This document shows, piece after piece, positions 2,152 to 61,015 of a stretch of 64,000 bases of DNA (positions within the stretch are counted from its first letter, which is position 1; every line of letters begins with the position of its first letter). The stretch is from contig OY970194.1 of assembly GCA_963708075.1 (NCBI GenBank), positions 2,656,001 to 2,720,000 on the forward strand. Direction: 5' to 3'. This DNA comes from Sedimentisphaerales bacterium (GTDB lineage Bacteria; Planctomycetota; Phycisphaerae; Sedimentisphaerales; Anaerobacaceae). The position numbers and the translations under genes are program-made. A model generated the notes under the pieces. That model had not been told where the DNA came from, did not search any database, and was given only the letters and a program-made list of their open reading frames with translations.

Positions 2152-3407
2152 CTACTTGAGGGCGCGGGTGACCGCTTCCGCCATGTTCTTGAGCAGTTCC
2201 CATTCAGCCTTGACTTCCTCCGACGCCTGGTGCCAGACACTCTCGTCCCTCGGTCCGGGGGGCTGCTGCTTGAGAACATGTCTGTAAACGTCCAGGAGTT
2301 TGCGGGCACATCGATCCATGGAGAATCGTTGAGCCGTCTCACTGGCAGCTTGCCTGAGTTTGTCGCGACGCCGCGGTGAGATCGACGCGAGTTGGGCTAT
2401 GGCGGCAGTGAAATCGCTGACGTCGCGATGCTTGAGCAAGCGTCCATTGTACCCGTCTTTGATCACCTCTCGCACGCCCGGCGCATCCAGCGCCACCACG
2501 GGCCTGCATGCCGCCATCGCCTCGGTCAATACCATGCCCTGCGTCTCCGTGTACGAGGCGAAGACAAAGACGTCCATTGCATGATATGCGTCCACAAGGT
2601 TCTGCCCATCCAGGGAACCCGTGAGGTGCAGACGGCTGCTCAATTCGCCCTGATCGAATATCTCCCGGATCGCATCCTCGGAAGGGCCGGACCCTACCAC
2701 GAGGAATTGCGCGTTCTTCCTGCGGGCGACATACTTGCGAATCGCTTCCGCAAGGAATGGCAGGTTCTTCTCGGGCGCCAGGCGCCTACATATCCCGCTA
2801 CAAACGCCTCCTGGGGTATCCCCATGAACCGCCGAAAAGCGAGGCCATCTCCGTTGGCAAACCGCTGTACGTCCACCCCGGTGGGAACCACGCTGACGGG
2901 TGTTTCCACGCCCCGCCGGCGAAGGACCCTGGCGACGCTCTGGCTGGGCGCGATCACGTGATCGCAGAGATTGCAGTACCCGGTGACGAGGCTGACGACG
3001 AACTGCTGCATCCGGTTCGCCTCGGCCGGCACGTAATGAAGGTAATGCTCATACATCGTGTGATGCGTGAACACCAGCGGTCGGCTGAACCGGCTTGCGA
3101 TGCGAACGGCGGTATTGCCCAGCAGATGTGGATGATGGGAGTGAACGATATCCGGCCGGAACTGCTCGAGACGCAGTGAAAGATAGCCGGGGATGGGCAG
3201 AGCCACCGAGAAATCGCTTCCGTTGAAGTGCTGAATCGCAGGAATGCGAATCACATCCTCCTCCGATTCGGGCGCTCCGGCAAAAACAGGCGCCACAATG
3301 ACTACCCGGTGTCCGGCTTTGCGACATTCGTTGGCGAAGGCTGTCACCGACCGCGCCACGCCGCCCACGAACGGAGTAAACGTATTGGTTAGCATCAAGA
3401 TGTTCAT
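2152..3407 (-). pseudogene. Glycosyltransferase family 4 (GT-B), split by a 1-nt frameshift near 2785
   Basis: ORF 2694-3407 (GGVARSV, HSHHP, FTHHT) plus ORF 2152-2700 (ETQGMVLTEAMAA). Adding one base restores GYVGRLAPEKNL. Confidence 0.85.
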
Positions 3408-14538: not shown

Positions 14539-15420
14539 CTATAGATCGTAGTACTCTCTGCACTCTCGCTCGCGGCCTCGGACCACCCGCTCACCCGCCA
14601 GCCTGCCGCGCTCGGCCGTCACGACCGTGCTCTGGCGCTGTTCGCCGCCCCGCTCGTAATAGATCACGACCCAATCATGGGTCTTGCCGCTCCTGTGAGC
14701 CAGCGCGGTATTCGAGAACAGGACTGTGAAGCTCCAGCCTTCGCGTCTGGCTCTCATGATGGGCAGCCACGCCTCCCCTTCCGGGTTGAATCGCTTCGGG
14801 GCGATCTTCCTCAATTGGTCCTTCTCCGCCTTCGTGCGGTACTCCTCATCAAGGTCAAGCAGCAAGTCGACCGATGGCCGCTCTTCCTGCTCGCCTTTCG
14901 GGGTTTCTTCCCTGAAGGCCTCCTGCAACCTGCGACGGGAAGACTGGCTCAGCATGCCTGCCAGGGCCACGCGAACACCTTCCGCCCGGTCGGGACCGAT
15001 CCCCTCCACCTGCTCCAAACGACCGTCGTGTGCCGCCAACTCAAGTTCCTCCAACGTGCTGATCCCCAGTTGTTCATGGATACGCCGCGCCAGCTCATCG
15101 CCTATCCCCGGCACCTCGGTGAAGAACATGCCGGGCCAGATCTCACTTTCGAGCTTCTCTTCCAAGCCGAAATGGCCCGTCGTCGCGATCTCCTTGATGG
15201 ACCCCGCCAACTTCTCCCCGATGCCCGGCAAAGTCCGCAACGCCCTCTCCCCATTCTGCTGCATGAGCTCGATGACGGGCTGATCCAGGTCCCGAACGGT
15301 CTGGGCCGCACTGCGGTAGCTGCGGACCCGGAAAGCATTCTCATCCTCAAGCTCCAGCATGTCCGCCACGTGGTCCAGTCTCTCCGCTATCTCCTCATTA
15401 CTGATCACATCTCGTCTCAC
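14539..15420 (-). CDS. Helix-hairpin-helix protein with a PolX-like N-terminus and an uncharacterised C-terminal domain
   Basis: NEEIAERL..ENAFRVRSYRSAA, LPGIGEKLA, VPGIG, VEGIG; no recognisable PolX palm or PHP domain. Confidence 0.75.
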   Translation of the reverse strand: MRRDVISNEEIAERLDHVADMLELEDENAFRVRSYRSAAQTVRDLDQPVIELMQQNGERALRTLPGIGEKLAGSIKEIATTGHFGLEEKLESEIWPGMFFTEVPGIGDELARRIHEQLGISTLEELELAAHDGRLEQVEGIGPDRAEGVRVALAGMLSQSSRRRLQEAFREETPKGEQEERPSVDLLLDLDEEYRTKAEKDQLRKIAPKRFNPEGEAWLPIMRARREGWSFTVLFSNTALAHRSGKTHDWVVIYYERGGEQRQSTVVTAERGRLAGERVVRGRERECREYYDL

Positions 15421-16420: not shown

Positions 16421-17005
16421 ATGGCATATATGACTAAAGAAGAGCGACAAAAGCGGATGCATCAGCTCGATGAGGGAATCCGCGTGTGCGTGAAATGCCC
16501 GCTGCACAAGAGCCGGACCATCGCCGTTCCGGGCGAAGGGCCTGTGCCCGCCGACGTATTGATTATCGGCGAGGCGCCCGGGGCCAAAGAGGATCGCCAG
16601 GGCCGGCCGTTTGTCGGGCCTTCCGGGATGCTCCTCGAACGGCTGCTGGAGGTGGCCGGACTGACCCGCAACGATGTCTATATCACCTCCTGCGTCAAAT
16701 GCAGGCCCCCGGGCAATCGGACTCCGCGCACGCTCGAGCTGAATACCTGTCAGGAAAACTGGCTGGATCAGCAAATCCCTCTGGTGGATCCCAAGCTCAT
16801 TGTCCTGCTCGGCAAGGTGGCGATTTCCCAGCTTCTTGGAGAGGAGGGAAGCCTGCGGGACCTTCACGGGCAAACCGTCGAACGTGACGGGCGGCTGTAC
16901 CTGATGACGTATCACCCTGCAGCGGCATTCCGGGTTCCGGAAACTAAAGAGATCATGAAACAGGACATGGCCATCCTCAGGGAGCTCCTGGCTGGCGTGT
17001 CATGA
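16421..17005 (+). CDS. Uracil-DNA glycosylase family 4 (4Fe-4S)
   Basis: CVKCPL, IGEAPG..ED..GRPFVG, VKCRPPGNR, TYHPAA. Confidence 0.92.
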   Translation: MAYMTKEERQKRMHQLDEGIRVCVKCPLHKSRTIAVPGEGPVPADVLIIGEAPGAKEDRQGRPFVGPSGMLLERLLEVAGLTRNDVYITSCVKCRPPGNRTPRTLELNTCQENWLDQQIPLVDPKLIVLLGKVAISQLLGEEGSLRDLHGQTVERDGRLYLMTYHPAAAFRVPETKEIMKQDMAILRELLAGVS

Positions 17006-27839: not shown

Positions 27840-28272
27840 ATGAAAATCAGCGAGATCATGACAGTCAGGTTTGAAACGATTGATTCTACAAGTACATTGA
27901 CGGATGCGGCCAGGCAAATGAAGGAGTTTAACGTGGGGTTTCTGCCCGTGAAGGAAGGGGCCGGCCTCATCGGAGTCGTCACAGATCGGGATATCGTCAT
28001 CCGGGCGCTGGCTGAGAAACGAGAACCCGGGTTCCACGCAGGTGAAAGACATCATCAGTTCCGATATTGTTTACTGCTTCGAGGACGACAGTATCGAGGA
28101 TGCCGTGAGGCTGATGGAGGCAAATCAGGTCAGACGTCTGATCGTTTGCCGGTCCGACCGAACACCAGTCGGCATCGTCTCTCTCGGGGATATCGCGGTC
28201 AAGGCGGGAGAGGAGTGCCTTTCCGGCGAGGCCCTGGAACAGATCAGCGAGCCGGCAGCACCTTCCAGGTAG
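27840..28272 (+). pseudogene. CBS-pair protein split by a +1 frameshift at about 28030
   Basis: MKISEIMT..GVVTDRDIVIRA continues in another frame as VKDIISSDIV..QVRRL..GIVSLGDIA..EQISEP*. Confidence 0.8.
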
Positions 28273-28337: not shown

Positions 28338-29654
28338 ATGAAGATCATAGAGTATTACAGGGCGCCGAATGTTCGATCGCGAATGATCGAGTTTCTCGGC
28401 GGGCATAGTCTGGATGAGGCCACGTGCTATTACATCGGTCGGTGCTGGGACACGATAAGACCGGGGTTCAACATGAGAAAGCCAGGCGACTTGGACGTGT
28501 TCCTGGAAAACGAGTGGGATGTGGCACGCTCGCTGTGGGATAGAGACTGGCTCATGGTGGACCTCGATGTCGAGTACACGAACTTCGAGTTTCCGGCTGA
28601 ACCGTTCCTCGACTACCAGCGCACCTTCGCTTTGCAGCAGCCGGTCCTCCACGCAATCCAGCGGGTGCTGAGCAGTGTGGGGATACAGCCCCTGCACAGC
28701 GTCAGCGGGCGAGGCCATCACTTCGTATGGAAAGTGCATCGCACGAGCGAGGCATTCCAACAGTTGGCCGGGATTGGCAGGCTCTCCCCCGCCCTGGAGC
28801 GACGGTATACTGCTCGGCATCCGCCGGCCGATGAGTCCGTCGGTCTTCAGCTTGGCAAGGCATTCTCGGGATTGGGTCTGGTGATGGAATATGTTGCCTA
28901 CCACGTCCTGTCCGAGTCACAGCCGGCCTGTGCGATCCCTGTGTTTCCTGAAGCTGTGGACTTCGGACCCCAGGAGAGAGGCAGGGAGATGATCTCCCTG
29001 GACATCAGTGAATATGCCGACCCTTTGCACACCCGAGGCGTGCGCATTCCGTTCAGTGTCTACATCAAGCCGTGGCAGCACCCGGAGATGCTCACGCCGG
29101 AGATTCAGGGGAAGGTGCCACTCATGGTGATGGTGCCCAGCAATGGGTTGGACACGCATGAGGTTGCCGCGATTATGCGGGACTTGGGCAAGGCCGCGGA
29201 ATGGGCGTCGCACACAAGCTGCCTTATCCCCGATTGCTCGCACGGAATGGAGGCATTGGCATCACTGTACCTGCGTTCCGATGCCCGCCGGTTTCACGAC
29301 TGGTTCTATTCCGTGGAGCCGGAGCCGCCCGAGGAATGGCCGCTCACCTACGACCGGGCGTCGATGATGGACGTCCCGCCTTATATCAAGTACATCCTGG
29401 AGAATCCCAATGACTCGCTGCTCAAGCCGGGCCCTGTCCGACAGCTTGTGGCCTTTCTCCTGGAACAGGGCTGGCATCCCCGGCATATCGCCGGCTTGAT
29501 TCGATCGAAATACGAGCGAGATCATGGCTGGTTTAACCAGTGGTATATCTATGACGCAGGGATGCGGGCGGACTTCCACGCCCGCGTGCTCGCAGGCATG
29601 ATCAAGATGGGGTATGACCATCAGGCGGACATTCCAGCCGCCGTGCGCGTGTAA
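28338..29654 (+). CDS. Hypothetical protein with archaeo-eukaryotic primase (AEP)-like motifs
   Basis: LMVDLDVE (hhhDhD), SGRGHH, ISLD..RGVRIPFS; C-terminal PPYIKYIL helical region. Confidence 0.6.
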   Translation: MKIIEYYRAPNVRSRMIEFLGGHSLDEATCYYIGRCWDTIRPGFNMRKPGDLDVFLENEWDVARSLWDRDWLMVDLDVEYTNFEFPAEPFLDYQRTFALQQPVLHAIQRVLSSVGIQPLHSVSGRGHHFVWKVHRTSEAFQQLAGIGRLSPALERRYTARHPPADESVGLQLGKAFSGLGLVMEYVAYHVLSESQPACAIPVFPEAVDFGPQERGREMISLDISEYADPLHTRGVRIPFSVYIKPWQHPEMLTPEIQGKVPLMVMVPSNGLDTHEVAAIMRDLGKAAEWASHTSCLIPDCSHGMEALASLYLRSDARRFHDWFYSVEPEPPEEWPLTYDRASMMDVPPYIKYILENPNDSLLKPGPVRQLVAFLLEQGWHPRHIAGLIRSKYERDHGWFNQWYIYDAGMRADFHARVLAGMIKMGYDHQADIPAAVRV

Positions 29655-29715
29655 ACGAGCCTGCTGTCATCCGCGTGCGTGCCCACTTGGCCGCTGACGC
29701 GAGGAGAAACAAACG

Positions 29716-30603
29716 ATGAGCGATTGGCCTGTAGGAATCTCAACCGGATGCTTTTACTACATGAATTTCTTCGATTGTATCCAGCCCATCCTTCGTGGCG
29801 GATTCTCCATGATTGAGATCGCCTCCTCCAGAGGCCACCTCGACTATCACGATAAGCACTCTATGAGAAGAGCGGCGCATGTCCTGGAAAAGGAGGGCAT
29901 TGAAGCCTATTCCTTCCATGCCCCGTTCCGCGAGGACATCGACGTCACCTCGCTCGACGAGGGCGCGCGTGCCCATGCGCTCAAGGAGATCTTCGCGGCG
30001 GCTGAGGCGGCGGCTATTCTCGGCGCCAGGCATTTCGTCTTTCATCCCGGCCCGGAGAAGAGCTATACGCCGGCGCCGGAAGAACGCCTCCTTCGCATGG
30101 ACAACGCCGCGAGGATCATCAACGACGTCTGCGACCGCTGTCGCGAACTTGGTGTGGGCATCGCCCTGGAGAACATGCTGCCACATCTGTTCTTTGGCAA
30201 TATGCGCGACATGTTGTGGATCATCGGCGCCATCGACAGCCCCATCGTCGGCACCTGTCTCGATACGGGACATGCCTTTCTTGCCGGTGACATCTCCAGA
30301 ATCATGTACAAGCTGTCCGGTCATCTGCAATTCCTGCACGCCAACGACAACATGGGCCGGAGCGACGATCATCTGCCTCCGGGCAAAGGCAAGATCGATT
30401 GGAAACCACTGCTGCACGAGTTGAACGAAATTGACTTCGAGGGCGCTTTCATCCTCGAGTTGATGGGCAATGCCCAGAAGAACCCGGAGGAAGTCATGGC
30501 CGAAGCGAGGCAGTCCCGCCGTTACCTCAGAGATCTCTCACGGCGGCTGACCCAGGCCGCCCCGCCGACTGTCCGCGGCGCGGCGAGGAATGTTGCCGAG
30601 TGA
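29716..30603 (+). CDS. Xylose-isomerase-like/AP endonuclease 2 TIM-barrel metalloenzyme
   Basis: FHAPF, FHPG, LENM, LDTGHA, LHAND, DDHLPPGKG.IDW, ILEL. Confidence 0.85.
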   Translation: MSDWPVGISTGCFYYMNFFDCIQPILRGGFSMIEIASSRGHLDYHDKHSMRRAAHVLEKEGIEAYSFHAPFREDIDVTSLDEGARAHALKEIFAAAEAAAILGARHFVFHPGPEKSYTPAPEERLLRMDNAARIINDVCDRCRELGVGIALENMLPHLFFGNMRDMLWIIGAIDSPIVGTCLDTGHAFLAGDISRIMYKLSGHLQFLHANDNMGRSDDHLPPGKGKIDWKPLLHELNEIDFEGAFILELMGNAQKNPEEVMAEARQSRRYLRDLSRRLTQAAPPTVRGAARNVAE

Positions 30604-30891: not shown

Positions 30892-31572
30892 ATGTTTCCG
30901 GCGGAGAAACGATTTGCAGACCGTCGTGAGGCGGCGTTGCTGCTCAGTGAACATCTCGCAGAGTACGGGGCGCGCCACCCTGTCATTCTCGGCATTCCTC
31001 GCGGCGGCATGGTCATCGCCGACACAATCGCAGATGAGTTGCAGACGGATTTGGATGTCGTCTTGACGCGCAAGCTCGGCGCTCCCGGAAACCCGGAATT
31101 GGCTATTGGAGCGGTTTCTGAGCATGGTGAAGTCCTGATCGACCCGAGGATCGCCAGGGCCGTGGGCGCCGACGACGATTACATCGAGCGGGAGAAAGCG
31201 AGGCAGCTTGCGGAGATCGAGAAGCGCCGGGAGCGATACCGAAGCGTGCTGCCAAAGGTCCCTCTGCAGGGGCGAACAGCCATCATTGTCGATGATGGCA
31301 TCGCCACCGGCGCTACCATGCGGGCATCCGCCCGGGCCGCACGTGCGGAAGGCGCGGCTGAGGTGGCCGTCGCCGCGCCGGTGGGAGCTCCGGACTCCGT
31401 AGAGATGCTTCGCGAGGAGGCCGACCAGGTCGTCTGCCTGCTGGTGCCCGAGTACCTGTACGCCATCGGACAGTTCTACCTTGACTTCCAACAGGTGAAT
31501 GACGAAGAGGTGATCAGCATCCTCAAAGCACATAGTGAGAAACAAACCAGGACTATGGAGTCTCAGGTGTGA
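30892..31572 (+). CDS. Phosphoribosyltransferase (Rv0571c/Rv2030c-like)
   Basis: FADRREA, GIPRGG, RKLGAPGNPELAIGAV, IIVDDGIATGAT. Confidence 0.88.
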   Translation: MFPAEKRFADRREAALLLSEHLAEYGARHPVILGIPRGGMVIADTIADELQTDLDVVLTRKLGAPGNPELAIGAVSEHGEVLIDPRIARAVGADDDYIEREKARQLAEIEKRRERYRSVLPKVPLQGRTAIIVDDGIATGATMRASARAARAEGAAEVAVAAPVGAPDSVEMLREEADQVVCLLVPEYLYAIGQFYLDFQQVNDEEVISILKAHSEKQTRTMESQV

Positions 31573-31624
31573 GGCGTCCAGTGAGCGGACTGCTCCTTTC
31601 GGACCGACAACCAGGATCGACGAC

Positions 31625-32347
31625 ATGAGCATGCGACTGTCACCGAATCACGAAGTAATGATAGAAAGCCCGGAAGTAGCGCTTCGAGCGGTACTGGCCA
31701 TTCCGAAGAACGCCCGCTCGATTGTGCTGTTCGCACACGGCGCCGGCAGCGGTCGCCACAGTCTCCGCAACCAGTATATCGCCCAGAAGCTCCAGGACGC
31801 GGGATTCGCGACTCTGCTCATGGATTTGCTCACGGAGGACGAGGAGAGGATCGATGCCTACACAGCGCGTCTTCGCTTCGATATTCCCCTGCTGGCCGGA
31901 CGCCTCGAATCCACGACCGGATGGCTGCTATCCCAGGAGCAAATGAAGGACCTCGATATCGGGTACTTTGGCGTCGATACCGGGGCGGCGGCGGCGCTCG
32001 TGGCGGCGATCCAGAGACCGGAAGCTATCCGTGCCATCGTCAGCCGGGGCGGGAGACCCGATCTCGCGTTCAATGTCCTGCCGGAGGTCAAGCCTCCTGT
32101 CCAGTTCCTCGTCGGCGCTAAGGACCAAATTGTCCTGGAGATCAACAAGGAAGCCGCCAAGAGACTGACGACGGAACACAACCTCGTCATTGTTCCCGGG
32201 GCCTCCCACTTCTTCGAAGAGCCCGGCAAACTCGATATGGTGGCCCGACGTACCGAACGATGGTTCGCCCGATATATGAGAACACCCGACCATCCCCTGG
32301 AAGCCAGCGACAAACACAATCACGTCGAATCCTGCTCGTTCCTCTGA
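31625..32347 (+). CDS. Dienelactone-hydrolase-like alpha/beta hydrolase
   Basis: VLFAHGAGSGRHS.RN, SRGGRPDLA, VPGASHFFEEPG. Confidence 0.85.
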   Translation: MSMRLSPNHEVMIESPEVALRAVLAIPKNARSIVLFAHGAGSGRHSLRNQYIAQKLQDAGFATLLMDLLTEDEERIDAYTARLRFDIPLLAGRLESTTGWLLSQEQMKDLDIGYFGVDTGAAAALVAAIQRPEAIRAIVSRGGRPDLAFNVLPEVKPPVQFLVGAKDQIVLEINKEAAKRLTTEHNLVIVPGASHFFEEPGKLDMVARRTERWFARYMRTPDHPLEASDKHNHVESCSFL

Positions 32348-59430: not shown

Positions 59431-61015
59431 AGGCTGTGAGAGAATTCGAATTACTGTGATGGTTCGACTGCATCTCTGCGACCTGATCGGTCCTTGTTCA
59501 TTCTGTAGATCTCAGTCTATTCAGGTTCGTTCAGGGGTCGATCTGTCTTGTCCAAACCTCCATCAGTTCAGCAGCCGGCCCGATCGGGCCCTGGGGCGGT
59601 ACTCTATGCCCCTTTTGGACTCTCAGCCCACCAATAATGCCTCACCAAAATGTATCATGTTGTACGCCAGCGCAGACCACAGCGCAACACAACGCACCTT
59701 GTGCAGCCCACGGACCAGCAATCGAGCCAACCCGCGATAGGTCCGCAGATCGGCGTTGACCGTCTCACTGGTCGCCGCCCGTTCCTTATAGATGCTCTTG
59801 CCTTCTTCACTGGCCATGCGCGTCCGCCAGGCGGCGATCTCAGGGCTGTCCGTCTTACGCACCTGACAGGGGTCCACACACCCTCGACCGCCCTGCGGCG
59901 GAGCGTAGATGCGTACACCCGCCTGCTCGGCCGCCTGGATCTGCTCCAACTTGACAAAGCCTCCATCCATCAAGTGCTCCTTCACCTGGCCGTCCGTACG
60001 CTCCTCGACGTGCTCACGCATCGGCGCACTCTCGGCCTTGTCCGTGCCCGCGTTGGTCACGTCCACGCCCAGGATCGCCCGCGATTGCGTGTCGCTGGCG
60101 AACTGCAGGTTATAGGCTGGACGAAAGCCGCCATCAGGCATTTTCATCACACGGGCTTCACTGTCGGTCGTCGAGGCACGCGGCGGGCTGGGTTTGTCCC
60201 GCTGATTGTTCCGCGCTTGGGCTTTGACCTTCTTGATCTCCTCCAAGGCCCCCAGCGCCTTTTCCACTCGCTCCAGCCGCTCTCGAGCCGCTCGTTCTTT
60301 CGCCGCCACCTGCCGCGCATGGCGATCCGTAAGGGCGGGCGACTCCCGCTGGGCCTTCAGAGCTTCCACCTGGCCCTTGGCCTGGTCGAGCAACTCGTTC
60401 AATCGCCGCTCCCGTCGAAAACTGCCTTTGCCGGCGCTGGCCCGCACACGCATCCCATCCTGGCTGATCCGATGCACGCTGACCAGCTTACGCTCCATCA
60501 GCATCGCCAGCACCTCGGTCATCAGACCGTCCAACGCCTCTTCATGACTGACGCGAAAATCACTCAACGTGTGATAGTTCACGCCAACCCCGCCGCACAG
60601 CCAGCGATACGCCGCATGATGCTCGCACAGCCGCTCCAACTCCCGCGCGCTGCCCACCCCCTGGGTCGCCGCATACAACCACAATGCCACCAGCAAGCGA
60701 ACGTCCGTCGCCGACCGCCCGGCCTGTCCCTCACTGACCTTCAGTCCCTCGGTAAACTTCGACAGGTCCAGCCGCTCCACCACGGCCCAAAGCACCCGCA
60801 CGTGATGGCCCGGCGGGATCGTCTCTTCCAGGGACAACGGAACCATCCGCGTTTGTGACCGGTCCGGCCGACGAAACCGCAACGGACCCGCAGGCACACA
60901 GTCTCTCGAATCTTGTTCCATCTCACTAACCTGAGATTCCATTCCCGGCAGAGTTCCTTGCTCTTTCATGCCCGTTATTCTACCATCCCCGTCAAGACCG
61001 ATTTCTTCACAGCCT
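59431..61015 (-). mobile_element. IS1182-family insertion sequence
   Basis: Ends AGGCTGTGA(G)AGAA / TTCTTCACAGCCT; flanking direct repeat CTCTG (or TCT if each end is 1 nt longer). Confidence 0.85.
59623..60969 (-). CDS. IS1182-family DDE transposase
   Basis: LWLYA..GVGSARELERLC..AYRWLCG..YHTLSDFR; QDGMRVRASA; TDSEARVMK..PAYNLQ; MDGGF; YKERAATSE; AYNM. Confidence 0.9.
   Translation of the reverse strand: MKEQGTLPGMESQVSEMEQDSRDCVPAGPLRFRRPDRSQTRMVPLSLEETIPPGHHVRVLWAVVERLDLSKFTEGLKVSEGQAGRSATDVRLLVALWLYAATQGVGSARELERLCEHHAAYRWLCGGVGVNYHTLSDFRVSHEEALDGLMTEVLAMLMERKLVSVHRISQDGMRVRASAGKGSFRRERRLNELLDQAKGQVEALKAQRESPALTDRHARQVAAKERAARERLERVEKALGALEEIKKVKAQARNNQRDKPSPPRASTTDSEARVMKMPDGGFRPAYNLQFASDTQSRAILGVDVTNAGTDKAESAPMREHVEERTDGQVKEHLMDGGFVKLEQIQAAEQAGVRIYAPPQGGRGCVDPCQVRKTDSPEIAAWRTRMASEEGKSIYKERAATSETVNADLRTYRGLARLLVRGLHKVRCVALWSALAYNMIHFGEALLVG

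Follow-up and report, generated by a model that had tools for sequence, protein, structure and literature searches.

The 64,000-nucleotide stretch of DNA analyzed here, called the window, comes from a Sedimentisphaerales bacterium (contig OY970194.1) and carries two consecutive forward-strand genes that are the subject of this report. The first (28338..29654, with its ATG at 28338 and its stop at 29654) encodes a 438-residue protein, P0001, that is predicted to belong to the superfamily of archaeo-eukaryotic primases (AEPs), with a catalytic domain of approximately residues 1 to 315 followed by a helical domain that resembles PriX and the C-terminal domain (CTD) of PriL. The second (29716..30603) encodes a 295-residue TIM barrel, P0002, which is assigned to the AP_endonuc_2 family by its Pfam match, its fold matches, and a set of invariant ligands. 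The pair is present in a single copy in the 7.5-Mb window genome, and its nearest named relatives are found in Planctomycetota. A full-text literature search, with most subscription journals and the supplementary lists of Kazlauskas 2018 outside its scope, found no description of the family or of the pairing.

The AEP protein and its PriL-like tail

An initial annotation, made from the letters of the window, had drawn attention to short strings in both proteins, and all of them are found: LMVDLDVE, SGRGHH, ISLD..RGVRIPFS, and PPYIKYIL in P0001, and HAPF, HPG, ENM, DTGH, HAND, DDH, and E in P0002. They go beyond chance because P0001 has a large set of homologs, its model shows an AEP fold, and the acidic and histidine residues concerned are invariant. 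Homologs of P0001 number 1259 at E<=0.001 among 7619 candidates (90% clustering) and form 538 clusters at 50%, yet none of the best 120 carries a Pfam domain or a functional name. The P0001 sequence itself has no match in Pfam, NCBIfam, PDB, PADLOC, or PHROGs, and the profile of alignment A1, made up of P0001 and 69 of the best 120 homologs (70 sequences), has none in PDB. The AlphaFold model of P0001 (pLDDT 91.9) is closest to Prim-PolC, with a Z of 17.2 and an rmsd of 3.4 over 246 aligned residues. This is followed by LigD-POL of P. aeruginosa (Z 15.5) and M. tuberculosis (15.1), the nonhomologous end joining (NHEJ) polymerase of Methanocella (14.5), the CRISPR-associated Prim-Pol CAPP (11.5), and PriS/Pri1 (about 11), and all 15 top structural matches are AEPs. 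Foldseek gives the same ranking, with a best E of 2.2e-3 and none below E 0.001. On the strength of the model, P0001 is predicted, as the initial annotation had supposed, to adopt an AEP fold; it is nearest to that of Prim-PolC and LigD-POL, at a sequence identity of 10-15%.

Described AEP motifs take the forms hhhDhD/E (I), sxH (II), and hD/E (III) (PMC5862659). Conservation of these motifs was judged in A1 and in a second alignment, A4, of P0001 and 72 near-full-length proteins of the best 150 representatives (73 sequences; fragments and most fusions are excluded). The DxD that had been read as motif I is off by two residues. D75 is variable (H in 37 and D in 33 of 70 sequences in A1; D in 10 of 73 in A4), and such poor conservation rules it out as a catalytic residue, whereas D77 (D in 69/70 of A1; D in 68 and E in 3 of the 73 in A4) and E79 (E in 68 and D in 2 of 70; E in 43 and D in 26 of 73) are near-invariant. 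The conserved motif I is thus D77-x-E79 (28566..28574), which fits the described form and whose residues are predicted metal ligands. Motifs II and III stand as first read. Motif II, S123-G-R-G-H-H128 (28704..28721), contains the conserved histidine H128 (70/70 in A1, 68/73 in A4), and motif III (29001..29057) is made up of D222 (70/70 and 73/73) and a D228..R233..R236-x-P-F-S stretch in which D228 is also conserved and R233 is kept in 70/70 and 70/73. Predicted strands 71-82, 126-134, and 217-222 carry D77-x-E79, G126-x-H128, and L221-D222, respectively. The motif II stretch also gives a weak hhalign match (E 0.081) to motif II of the LigD-POL encoded at a family locus, L036. PF21686 has no match in P0001, in the 73 family members, or in the window genome, and no AEP fusion of 876-2500 residues was seen among 5942 candidates, which is weak evidence. 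One family AEP, P0248, carries an N-terminally fused CBS-pair domain, in a single sequence that could be an artefact. Very distant AEP relatives at 21-25% identity (L081-L084, L099) have D77 and D222 and are without the cysteine tail or the barrel; one of them, L082, lies near Cas1 and a reverse-transcriptase-like gene.

The PriL- or PriX-like C-terminus that had been proposed from the string PPYIKYIL gains some support from the model. Within the full-length model, residues 337-438 (29346..29651) align with residues 320-424 of yeast PriL-CTD (6di2) at a middling Z of 6.6, with an rmsd of 3.3 over 95 residues. The same range matches photolyase C-terminal domains at Z 5-5.7, and PriL-CTD and the photolyase domain are a known structural pair (PMC2852410). 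A protein language model proposes look-alikes at a score of 0.94 among archaeal PriS-PriL fusions and PriX clusters, and PF04104 gives one weak match (E 0.029) among 73 wider-family members. Four cysteines in the PriL-type arrangement PPC...C-x8-C-x4-C are kept in 67, 66, 67, and 64 of the 73 A4 sequences, and because of this most of the family is predicted to carry a 4Fe-4S cluster. None of the four is left in P0001 or its closest relatives; in P0001, Y349 replaces the first and the tail holding the other three is absent. PriX is likewise described as having no cluster (PMC5700102, PMC10250227).

It is possible to read this architecture as a monomeric primase of the PriS-PriL type that makes primers de novo, in the service of repriming or restart, and whose primers the barrel trims or removes, but we consider this quite improbable. 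The look-alikes and the cysteine pattern agree with it, and PriS-PriL fusions are reported to prime without a cluster (PMC10250227). However, R355 (R72 in PriX) and K363 of yeast PriL, which are critical for initiation (PMC2852410), fall on family positions 367 and 375, both hydrophobic, in a mapping by spacing that involves no residue-level superposition and is anchored on P334/C336 and F361-L367, conserved in yeast PriL (PMC2852410). Position 367 is I, V, L, or M in 70/70 sequences of A1, and hydrophobic residues at the two positions would argue against ordinary priming. The PriX-type D-x-RKR is not present where the central helix begins, and a helicase or replicon context is absent. No match to the pair was found in 72,556 plasmids, 50,697 phages, IMG/VR, or PHROGs; for this reason the pair is not regarded as a replicon primase, and a mobile-element primase of the PrimPol-PV1 type is unlikely.

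Pairing and the TIM barrel

A scan of GTDB genomes gave 387 coding stretches, and locus counts from here on refer to the best 80 loci unless stated otherwise. These come from Planctomycetota, Fibrobacterota, Verrucomicrobiota, Desulfobacterota, Acidobacteriota, Omnitrophota, and other phyla. The barrel gene lies directly downstream of the AEP gene in 78/80 loci, with frequent overlaps of 4 or 59 nucleotides. Across a wider set of 100 distinct loci, the two are adjacent in 86 (42/48 clusters at 70% identity), and adjacency follows AEP identity: 81/83 at >=40%, 5/12 at 30-40%, and 0/5 below 30%. In an Acidobacteriota subfamily the pair is retained, with identities of about 32% for the AEP and 30% for the barrel, and in a Desulfobacterota clade the AEP occurs by itself, with only distant barrels elsewhere in the genome. 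The barrel profile has 28 long matches, and every one of them, like P0134, is a single-chain AEP-TIM fusion of about 750 residues with intact catalytic residues. The fusions occupy four places in the tree, 24 in one clade and three apart, and those that stand alone might be artefacts caused by frameshifts in overlapping genes. The AEP and barrel genes are functionally linked, and very tightly so. The barrel tree recovers 32 of 42 supported splits of the AEP tree, with 4 conflicting and a Spearman coefficient of 0.62; this is not taken as proof of co-evolution because shared descent predicts congruence.

The pair is accessory: out of 23 further genomes in the genus, 8 have a match, which is strong in 6, and matches are also seen in 5 of 300 sampled Planctomycetota and in 2/250 and 9/250 genomes of two other phyla (centre genomes excluded). 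Two Planctomycetota genomes have weaker barrel matches (E about 1e-42) without an adjoining AEP, and by their sequences these look like a different subfamily. A metagenome scan with a single protein gave 4 loci. At L085 (5895-6383), a decayed copy is seen in which the first 77 AEP residues run into a barrel fragment.

Nine residues of P0002 (H68, H110, E152, D183, H186, H208, D217, H219, and E248) align with the metal ligands of endonuclease IV (EndoIV), in the order that the initial annotation had recognized. The comparison uses the nine ligands of the E. coli enzyme. They are invariant in 64/64 sequences of alignment A2, which is made up of P0002 and 63 of 74 full-length genes, and in 80/80 paired sequences (79 for E248, with one sequence truncated). 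E34, H41, and H157 are invariant as well. The best match in both sequence and fold is MJ1311 (E 9e-18, Z 32.5), followed in sequence by TTHB071 (E 6e-8), at about 25% identity. The third-best PDB match of the barrel profile is M. tuberculosis EndoIV (E 5e-13).

In fold, MJ1311 is followed by ketose 3-epimerases and xylose isomerases (Z 27-29), and JGI labels the fusions 'sugar phosphate isomerase/epimerase'. These labels would make the barrel a sugar epimerase and a mere co-traveller in the island, which we regard as highly improbable. The substrate-binding arginine of P. cichorii D-tagatose 3-epimerase (DTE), R217 (PMC7008614), aligns with the invariant H219, and H68, H110, and D217 have no counterpart in ketose epimerases. 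No conserved Glu equivalent to epimerase Glu158 follows E152, where the segment reads N-x-L-P-H-L. Repeated in-frame fusion to the AEP is a further argument against a co-traveller. The initial annotation had allowed for a barrel that acts only on sugars, and the presence of H219 in place of the epimerase arginine speaks against this. As the nine ligands are invariant and the epimerase arginine is replaced, the barrel is predicted from its sequence to be a three-metal phosphoesterase.

One such activity would be that of a true apurinic/apyrimidinic (AP) endonuclease incising abasic sites, with the AEP filling the one-nucleotide gap, so that the two genes form a base excision repair core. We consider this unlikely, but several features are in its favor. 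In addition to the complete set of ligands and the M. tuberculosis EndoIV match, MJ1311 is listed as a predicted M. jannaschii EndoIV (PMC2770678), no other match to Nfo is found in the window genome, and glycosylase genes abut the AEP or the pair at L036, L041, and L049. EndoIV recognizes DNA through R37, Y72, L73, N75, and R230 (PMC13113976, PMC6341776), and the tyrosine, which follows the first histidine ligand, corresponds to F71 of the barrel (F in 76, Y in 3, and W in 1 of 80). This is the sole DNA-contact trait that is kept. R37 is replaced by H41 (in an ungapped register), N75 by D76 (80/80), and R230 by D/E218 (74/80), while L73 is variable. Furthermore, P0002 scores 31.9 bits against the nfo model TIGR00587, for which the cut-off is 129.65, and of the five hosts tested, four carry an additional Nfo that exceeds the cut-off. 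PF1383, an Nfo homolog encoded beside a uracil-DNA glycosylase (UDG) gene, is reported to have no AP activity, though it is without some key residues (PMC2770678). The repair pair of the initial annotation therefore holds as to linkage and is weakened as to its AP endonuclease, by the replaced DNA contacts and the separate Nfo.

Stress island and neighboring genes

The pair sits in a general-stress island, a setting that had been proposed and that the gene neighborhood bears out. Upstream lie genes for superoxide dismutase (SOD), ribulose-phosphate epimerase, a two-component cluster, dodecin, UDG, an HHH_8 protein, DUF488, and Hsp20, along with PfpI-, DegP-, and phosphorylase-like genes labeled by reading of their translations. 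Two of these, 11-14 kb upstream of the pair, were missed by the initial annotation: a family-4 UDG (16421-17005, forward strand) and a stand-alone PolX-N-like HHH_8/HHH_5 protein (14539-15420, reverse strand), the C-terminal part of which has no assignment. Directly upstream of P0001 is a forward-strand CBS-pair gene (27840..28272) with Pfam CBS matches in two frames. The frameshift in it, near position 28024, probably reflects a mistake in the assembly, since the one extra base responsible is missing from the contigs of three of four runs. A GT4 glycosyltransferase gene at 2155-3407 and a PolX gene at G000:C1:2787257-2788997 also look split. Downstream are forward-strand phosphoribosyltransferase (PRT) and dienelactone-hydrolase (DLH) genes (30892..32347), which are island neighbors and not core parts. 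The GC content of the island shows no step. About 29 kb from the pair, at 59626-60846 on the reverse strand, is a probable insertion sequence transposase by its translation (PHROG 8928, function unknown).

It had also been claimed that no Ku, ligase, or phage genes lie nearby, which holds for this genome within the searches made. The sole Ku match of the window genome (G000:C1:4314134-4314739; L109 5134-5739) is some 1.6 Mb from the pair, and no ATP-dependent ligase or LigD-POL is matched in this genome, which is 92.8% complete. The Ku match is short (202 residues, partial profile), has no LigD alongside, and is possibly degenerate. Promoter and terminator scans were at chance (2 against 1.4 expected and 4 against 3.6 expected).

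Neighbors in the 6-kb flanks of the 80 loci were counted by tblastn with 21 queries. Hsp20 (19), CBS (18), SOD (6), DLH (6), encapsulin (6), and protein isoaspartate methyltransferase (PCMT; 6) recur, followed by universal stress protein (USP; 5), cyclic nucleotide (cNMP)-binding (4), and PRT (3) genes. A CBS gene lies within 700 nucleotides upstream of the AEP in 10/80 loci, and Cas1 in none of the 80. Ku, UDG-superfamily, PolX, Nfo, and DUF72 genes count 2 each, and LigD-POL 1. Singleton neighbors were scanned with Pfam for 93 of 205 at E 1e-18, with 112 outside the scan.

Neighbors of the CBS, USP, and cNMP-binding kind could instead be the readers of a stress nucleotide that the AEP, with its PriL-like domain, makes and the barrel degrades. 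The product would be short or capped, pppNpN-like, cyclic, or a dinucleoside polyphosphate. Put for the family as a whole, the AEP would be a nucleotide-signal synthase, redox-gated in most lineages by a PriL-type 4Fe-4S cluster, and the EndoIV-fold phosphodiesterase would be its eraser. In either wording the idea is an outside candidate, although, if true, it would describe an alarmone or second-messenger system of a new kind, made up of folds known from primases and DNA repair. The seemingly obligate pairing and the recurrent fusions suit opposing activities, and an acidic barrel mouth with the extra invariant H41 and H157 is what would be expected for a small substrate. CbiR, a member of the same barrel family, is a cobamide phosphodiesterase (bioRxiv 10.1101/2020.09.02.280537), which shows that the family includes an enzyme acting on something other than DNA; the match of P0002 to its model is weak (NF041277, 50.7 bits with a cut-off of 105). 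The frequency of CBS directly upstream, the CBS-AEP fusion P0248, and the USP and cNMP-binding genes are also consistent with signaling. Against this, the polymerases nearest in structure are repair enzymes that depend on a template, a dedicated receptor is not conserved, CBS and USP genes are common in stress islands generally, and at L036 and L041 the position of the barrel is taken by a glycosylase.

Recognized repair genes are found near the pair at a few loci. Fpg abuts the pair at L049 (Pfam scan), and Nfo and/or PolX lie near it at L029, L037, and L090. L036 (2993-7096) and L041 (4065-11871) belong to the close family and are without the barrel; both have a UDG-superfamily gene after the AEP stop and two tandem Ku genes upstream. 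That glycosylase is SMUG-like, a label made by reading. A LigD-POL gene (L036), a PolX gene (L041), and a NUDIX gene also lie nearby. At L051, RtcB and archease are directly upstream and divergent (Pfam scan), and PMC5862659 mentions AEPs among the components of predicted systems for RNA repair. It is conceivable on this basis that the barrel opens 2',3'-cyclic or 3'-phosphate RNA ends to which the AEP adds ribonucleotides. We give this little credence, as it depends on a single locus among those scanned, and neither RNA ligase nor Ro is among the recurring neighbors. Cobamide genes are likewise not among the neighbors scanned or recurring.

A possible role in DNA end healing, and related systems

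A role in DNA repair of either form, end healing or AP incision, is on balance probable. The form that we tentatively prefer, with somewhat less than even confidence, is a DNA end-healing and gap-filling module for stressed or dormant cells. By analogy with PolX-PHP, the barrel would heal 3' ends and the AEP would extend them, a division of labor that we put forward with the same reserve. Healing or editing of 3' ends on a substrate held by the partner is suggested because the barrel keeps its metals, drops the residues that bind duplex DNA, and is tied to a repair-type AEP. The barrel would hydrolyze a phosphoester at the 3' end and would not, by itself, act on AP sites inside duplex DNA. Candidate substrates are a 3'-phosphate, a 3'-phosphoglycolate, the sugar left by a lyase, or a misinserted nucleotide at the terminus. 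Most of the DNA binding probably comes from the AEP, which would then extend the freed 3'-OH by a few nucleotides via a two-metal D77/E79/D222 site, and a general host ligase would seal the nick. More speculatively, the PriL-like domain may hold on to template or to the 5'-phosphate downstream rather than to an initiating NTP, and in most relatives it may carry a 4Fe-4S cluster, with the window lineage doing without.

The open reading frames, their conservation, their linkage, and the fusions are shown, and the folds are predicted. End healing and gap filling are favored by the predicted kinship of the AEP with repair polymerases, the near-invariant catalytic residues and metal ligands, the linkage and fusions, the glycosylase, Ku, LigD-POL, Nfo, and PolX genes at the loci named above, and the absence of matches in plasmids, phages, and viral contigs. 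Polymerase plus phosphoesterase is, judging from the analogous systems, a recurring repair design: PolX unites gap filling with a PHP phosphoesterase of the nine-His/Asp kind (PMC6616362), and Prim-PolC works with EndoIV and glycosylases (PMC5663958). EndoIV also clears 3'-blocking groups, a reaction for which, it is argued, residues contacting the 3' backbone count for little (PMC6341776). Archaeal PriSL is reported to repair breaks (PMC12019639).

Several observations weigh on the other side. Both proteins are net acidic, with a median pI of 5.6 for the AEP and 5.8 for the barrel, and in the PHP precedent DNA binding depends on basic residues (PMC6616362). Recognized repair genes occur in the flanks of only 5/80 loci (L029, L036, L037, L041, and L049), of which L036 and L041 are near-identical relatives that count as one event. 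These neighbors are suggestive and show no enrichment in any tested sense, and stress islands, where the recurring genes are CBS, Hsp20, SOD, DLH, encapsulin, and PCMT, carry repair genes anyway. A ligase partner is absent among the neighbors scanned, unlike the case of LigC and LigD. With this absence and so few repair neighbors, the gap filling by the AEP that was initially proposed is not established. Divergent AEPs dispense with the barrel, at 7/12 loci with 30-40% identity and at 5/5 below 30%. Finally, the alignment to LigD-POL and Prim-PolC begins at their residues 30-32, which leaves their N-terminal segment unmatched; this segment is presumably the 5'-phosphate pocket.

Whichever role applies, a sizeable AEP family is without annotation, and its architecture lies outside Pfam, NCBIfam, PHROGs, and PADLOC. 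It combines a LigD-like catalytic core with a tail of the PriL Fe-S type and with an EndoIV-fold protein as its dedicated partner. A barrel subfamily now mislabeled 'sugar isomerase' gains a testable job, which offers an inroad to the function of MJ1311/TTHB071-type barrels. Natural versions with and without the cluster could provide a clean test of the role of the PriL Fe-S cluster, which the primase papers cited here leave open. Biochemistry is made easier to begin by the fusions and by a cultured carrier of the AEP, Desulfurivibrio alkaliphilus (P0094).

Among known systems, the Prim-PolC/LigC operon of mycobacteria and LigD-POL are closest to P0001 in AEP fold, in motifs I-III, and in a plausible stationary-phase repair role. 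They differ in that PF21686 is unmatched here, identity is low, and motif I of the P0001 family is DxE. The PriL-CTD-like domain stands in place of helix 8/Loop 3, a ligase or Ku partner is absent, and the family has a dedicated TIM-barrel partner of its own. With the monomeric primases of the PriS-PriL type (N. equitans NEQ395, PolpTN2) and PriX, the family shares the four cysteines and, by prediction, the junction of AEP and PriL-CTD-like domain. Unlike them, the present family is bacterial, accessory, and found in chromosomal stress islands, with a catalytic domain nearer LigD-POL than PriS and with the initiation-site arginine apparently absent, as judged from spacing. CAPP is also a bacterial AEP with a C-terminal helical domain, but Cas1 is near none of the close loci, only near the very distant L082.

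The barrel shares the nine-ligand set with EndoIV (Nfo), but it is far below the nfo cut-off, has lost R37, L73, N75, and R230, and coexists with Nfo in most hosts tested. MJ1311, TTHB071, and CbiR, the H-x-P-F type of AP_endonuc_2 proteins, show the same ligand pattern in alignments, although identity is only about 25%, the CbiR cut-off is not reached, and cobamide genes do not recur nearby. Bacterial PolX-PHP is comparable by function only, as a polymerase joined to a nine-His/Asp phosphoesterase (PMC6616362); its polymerase fold is unrelated and its barrel is a different one.

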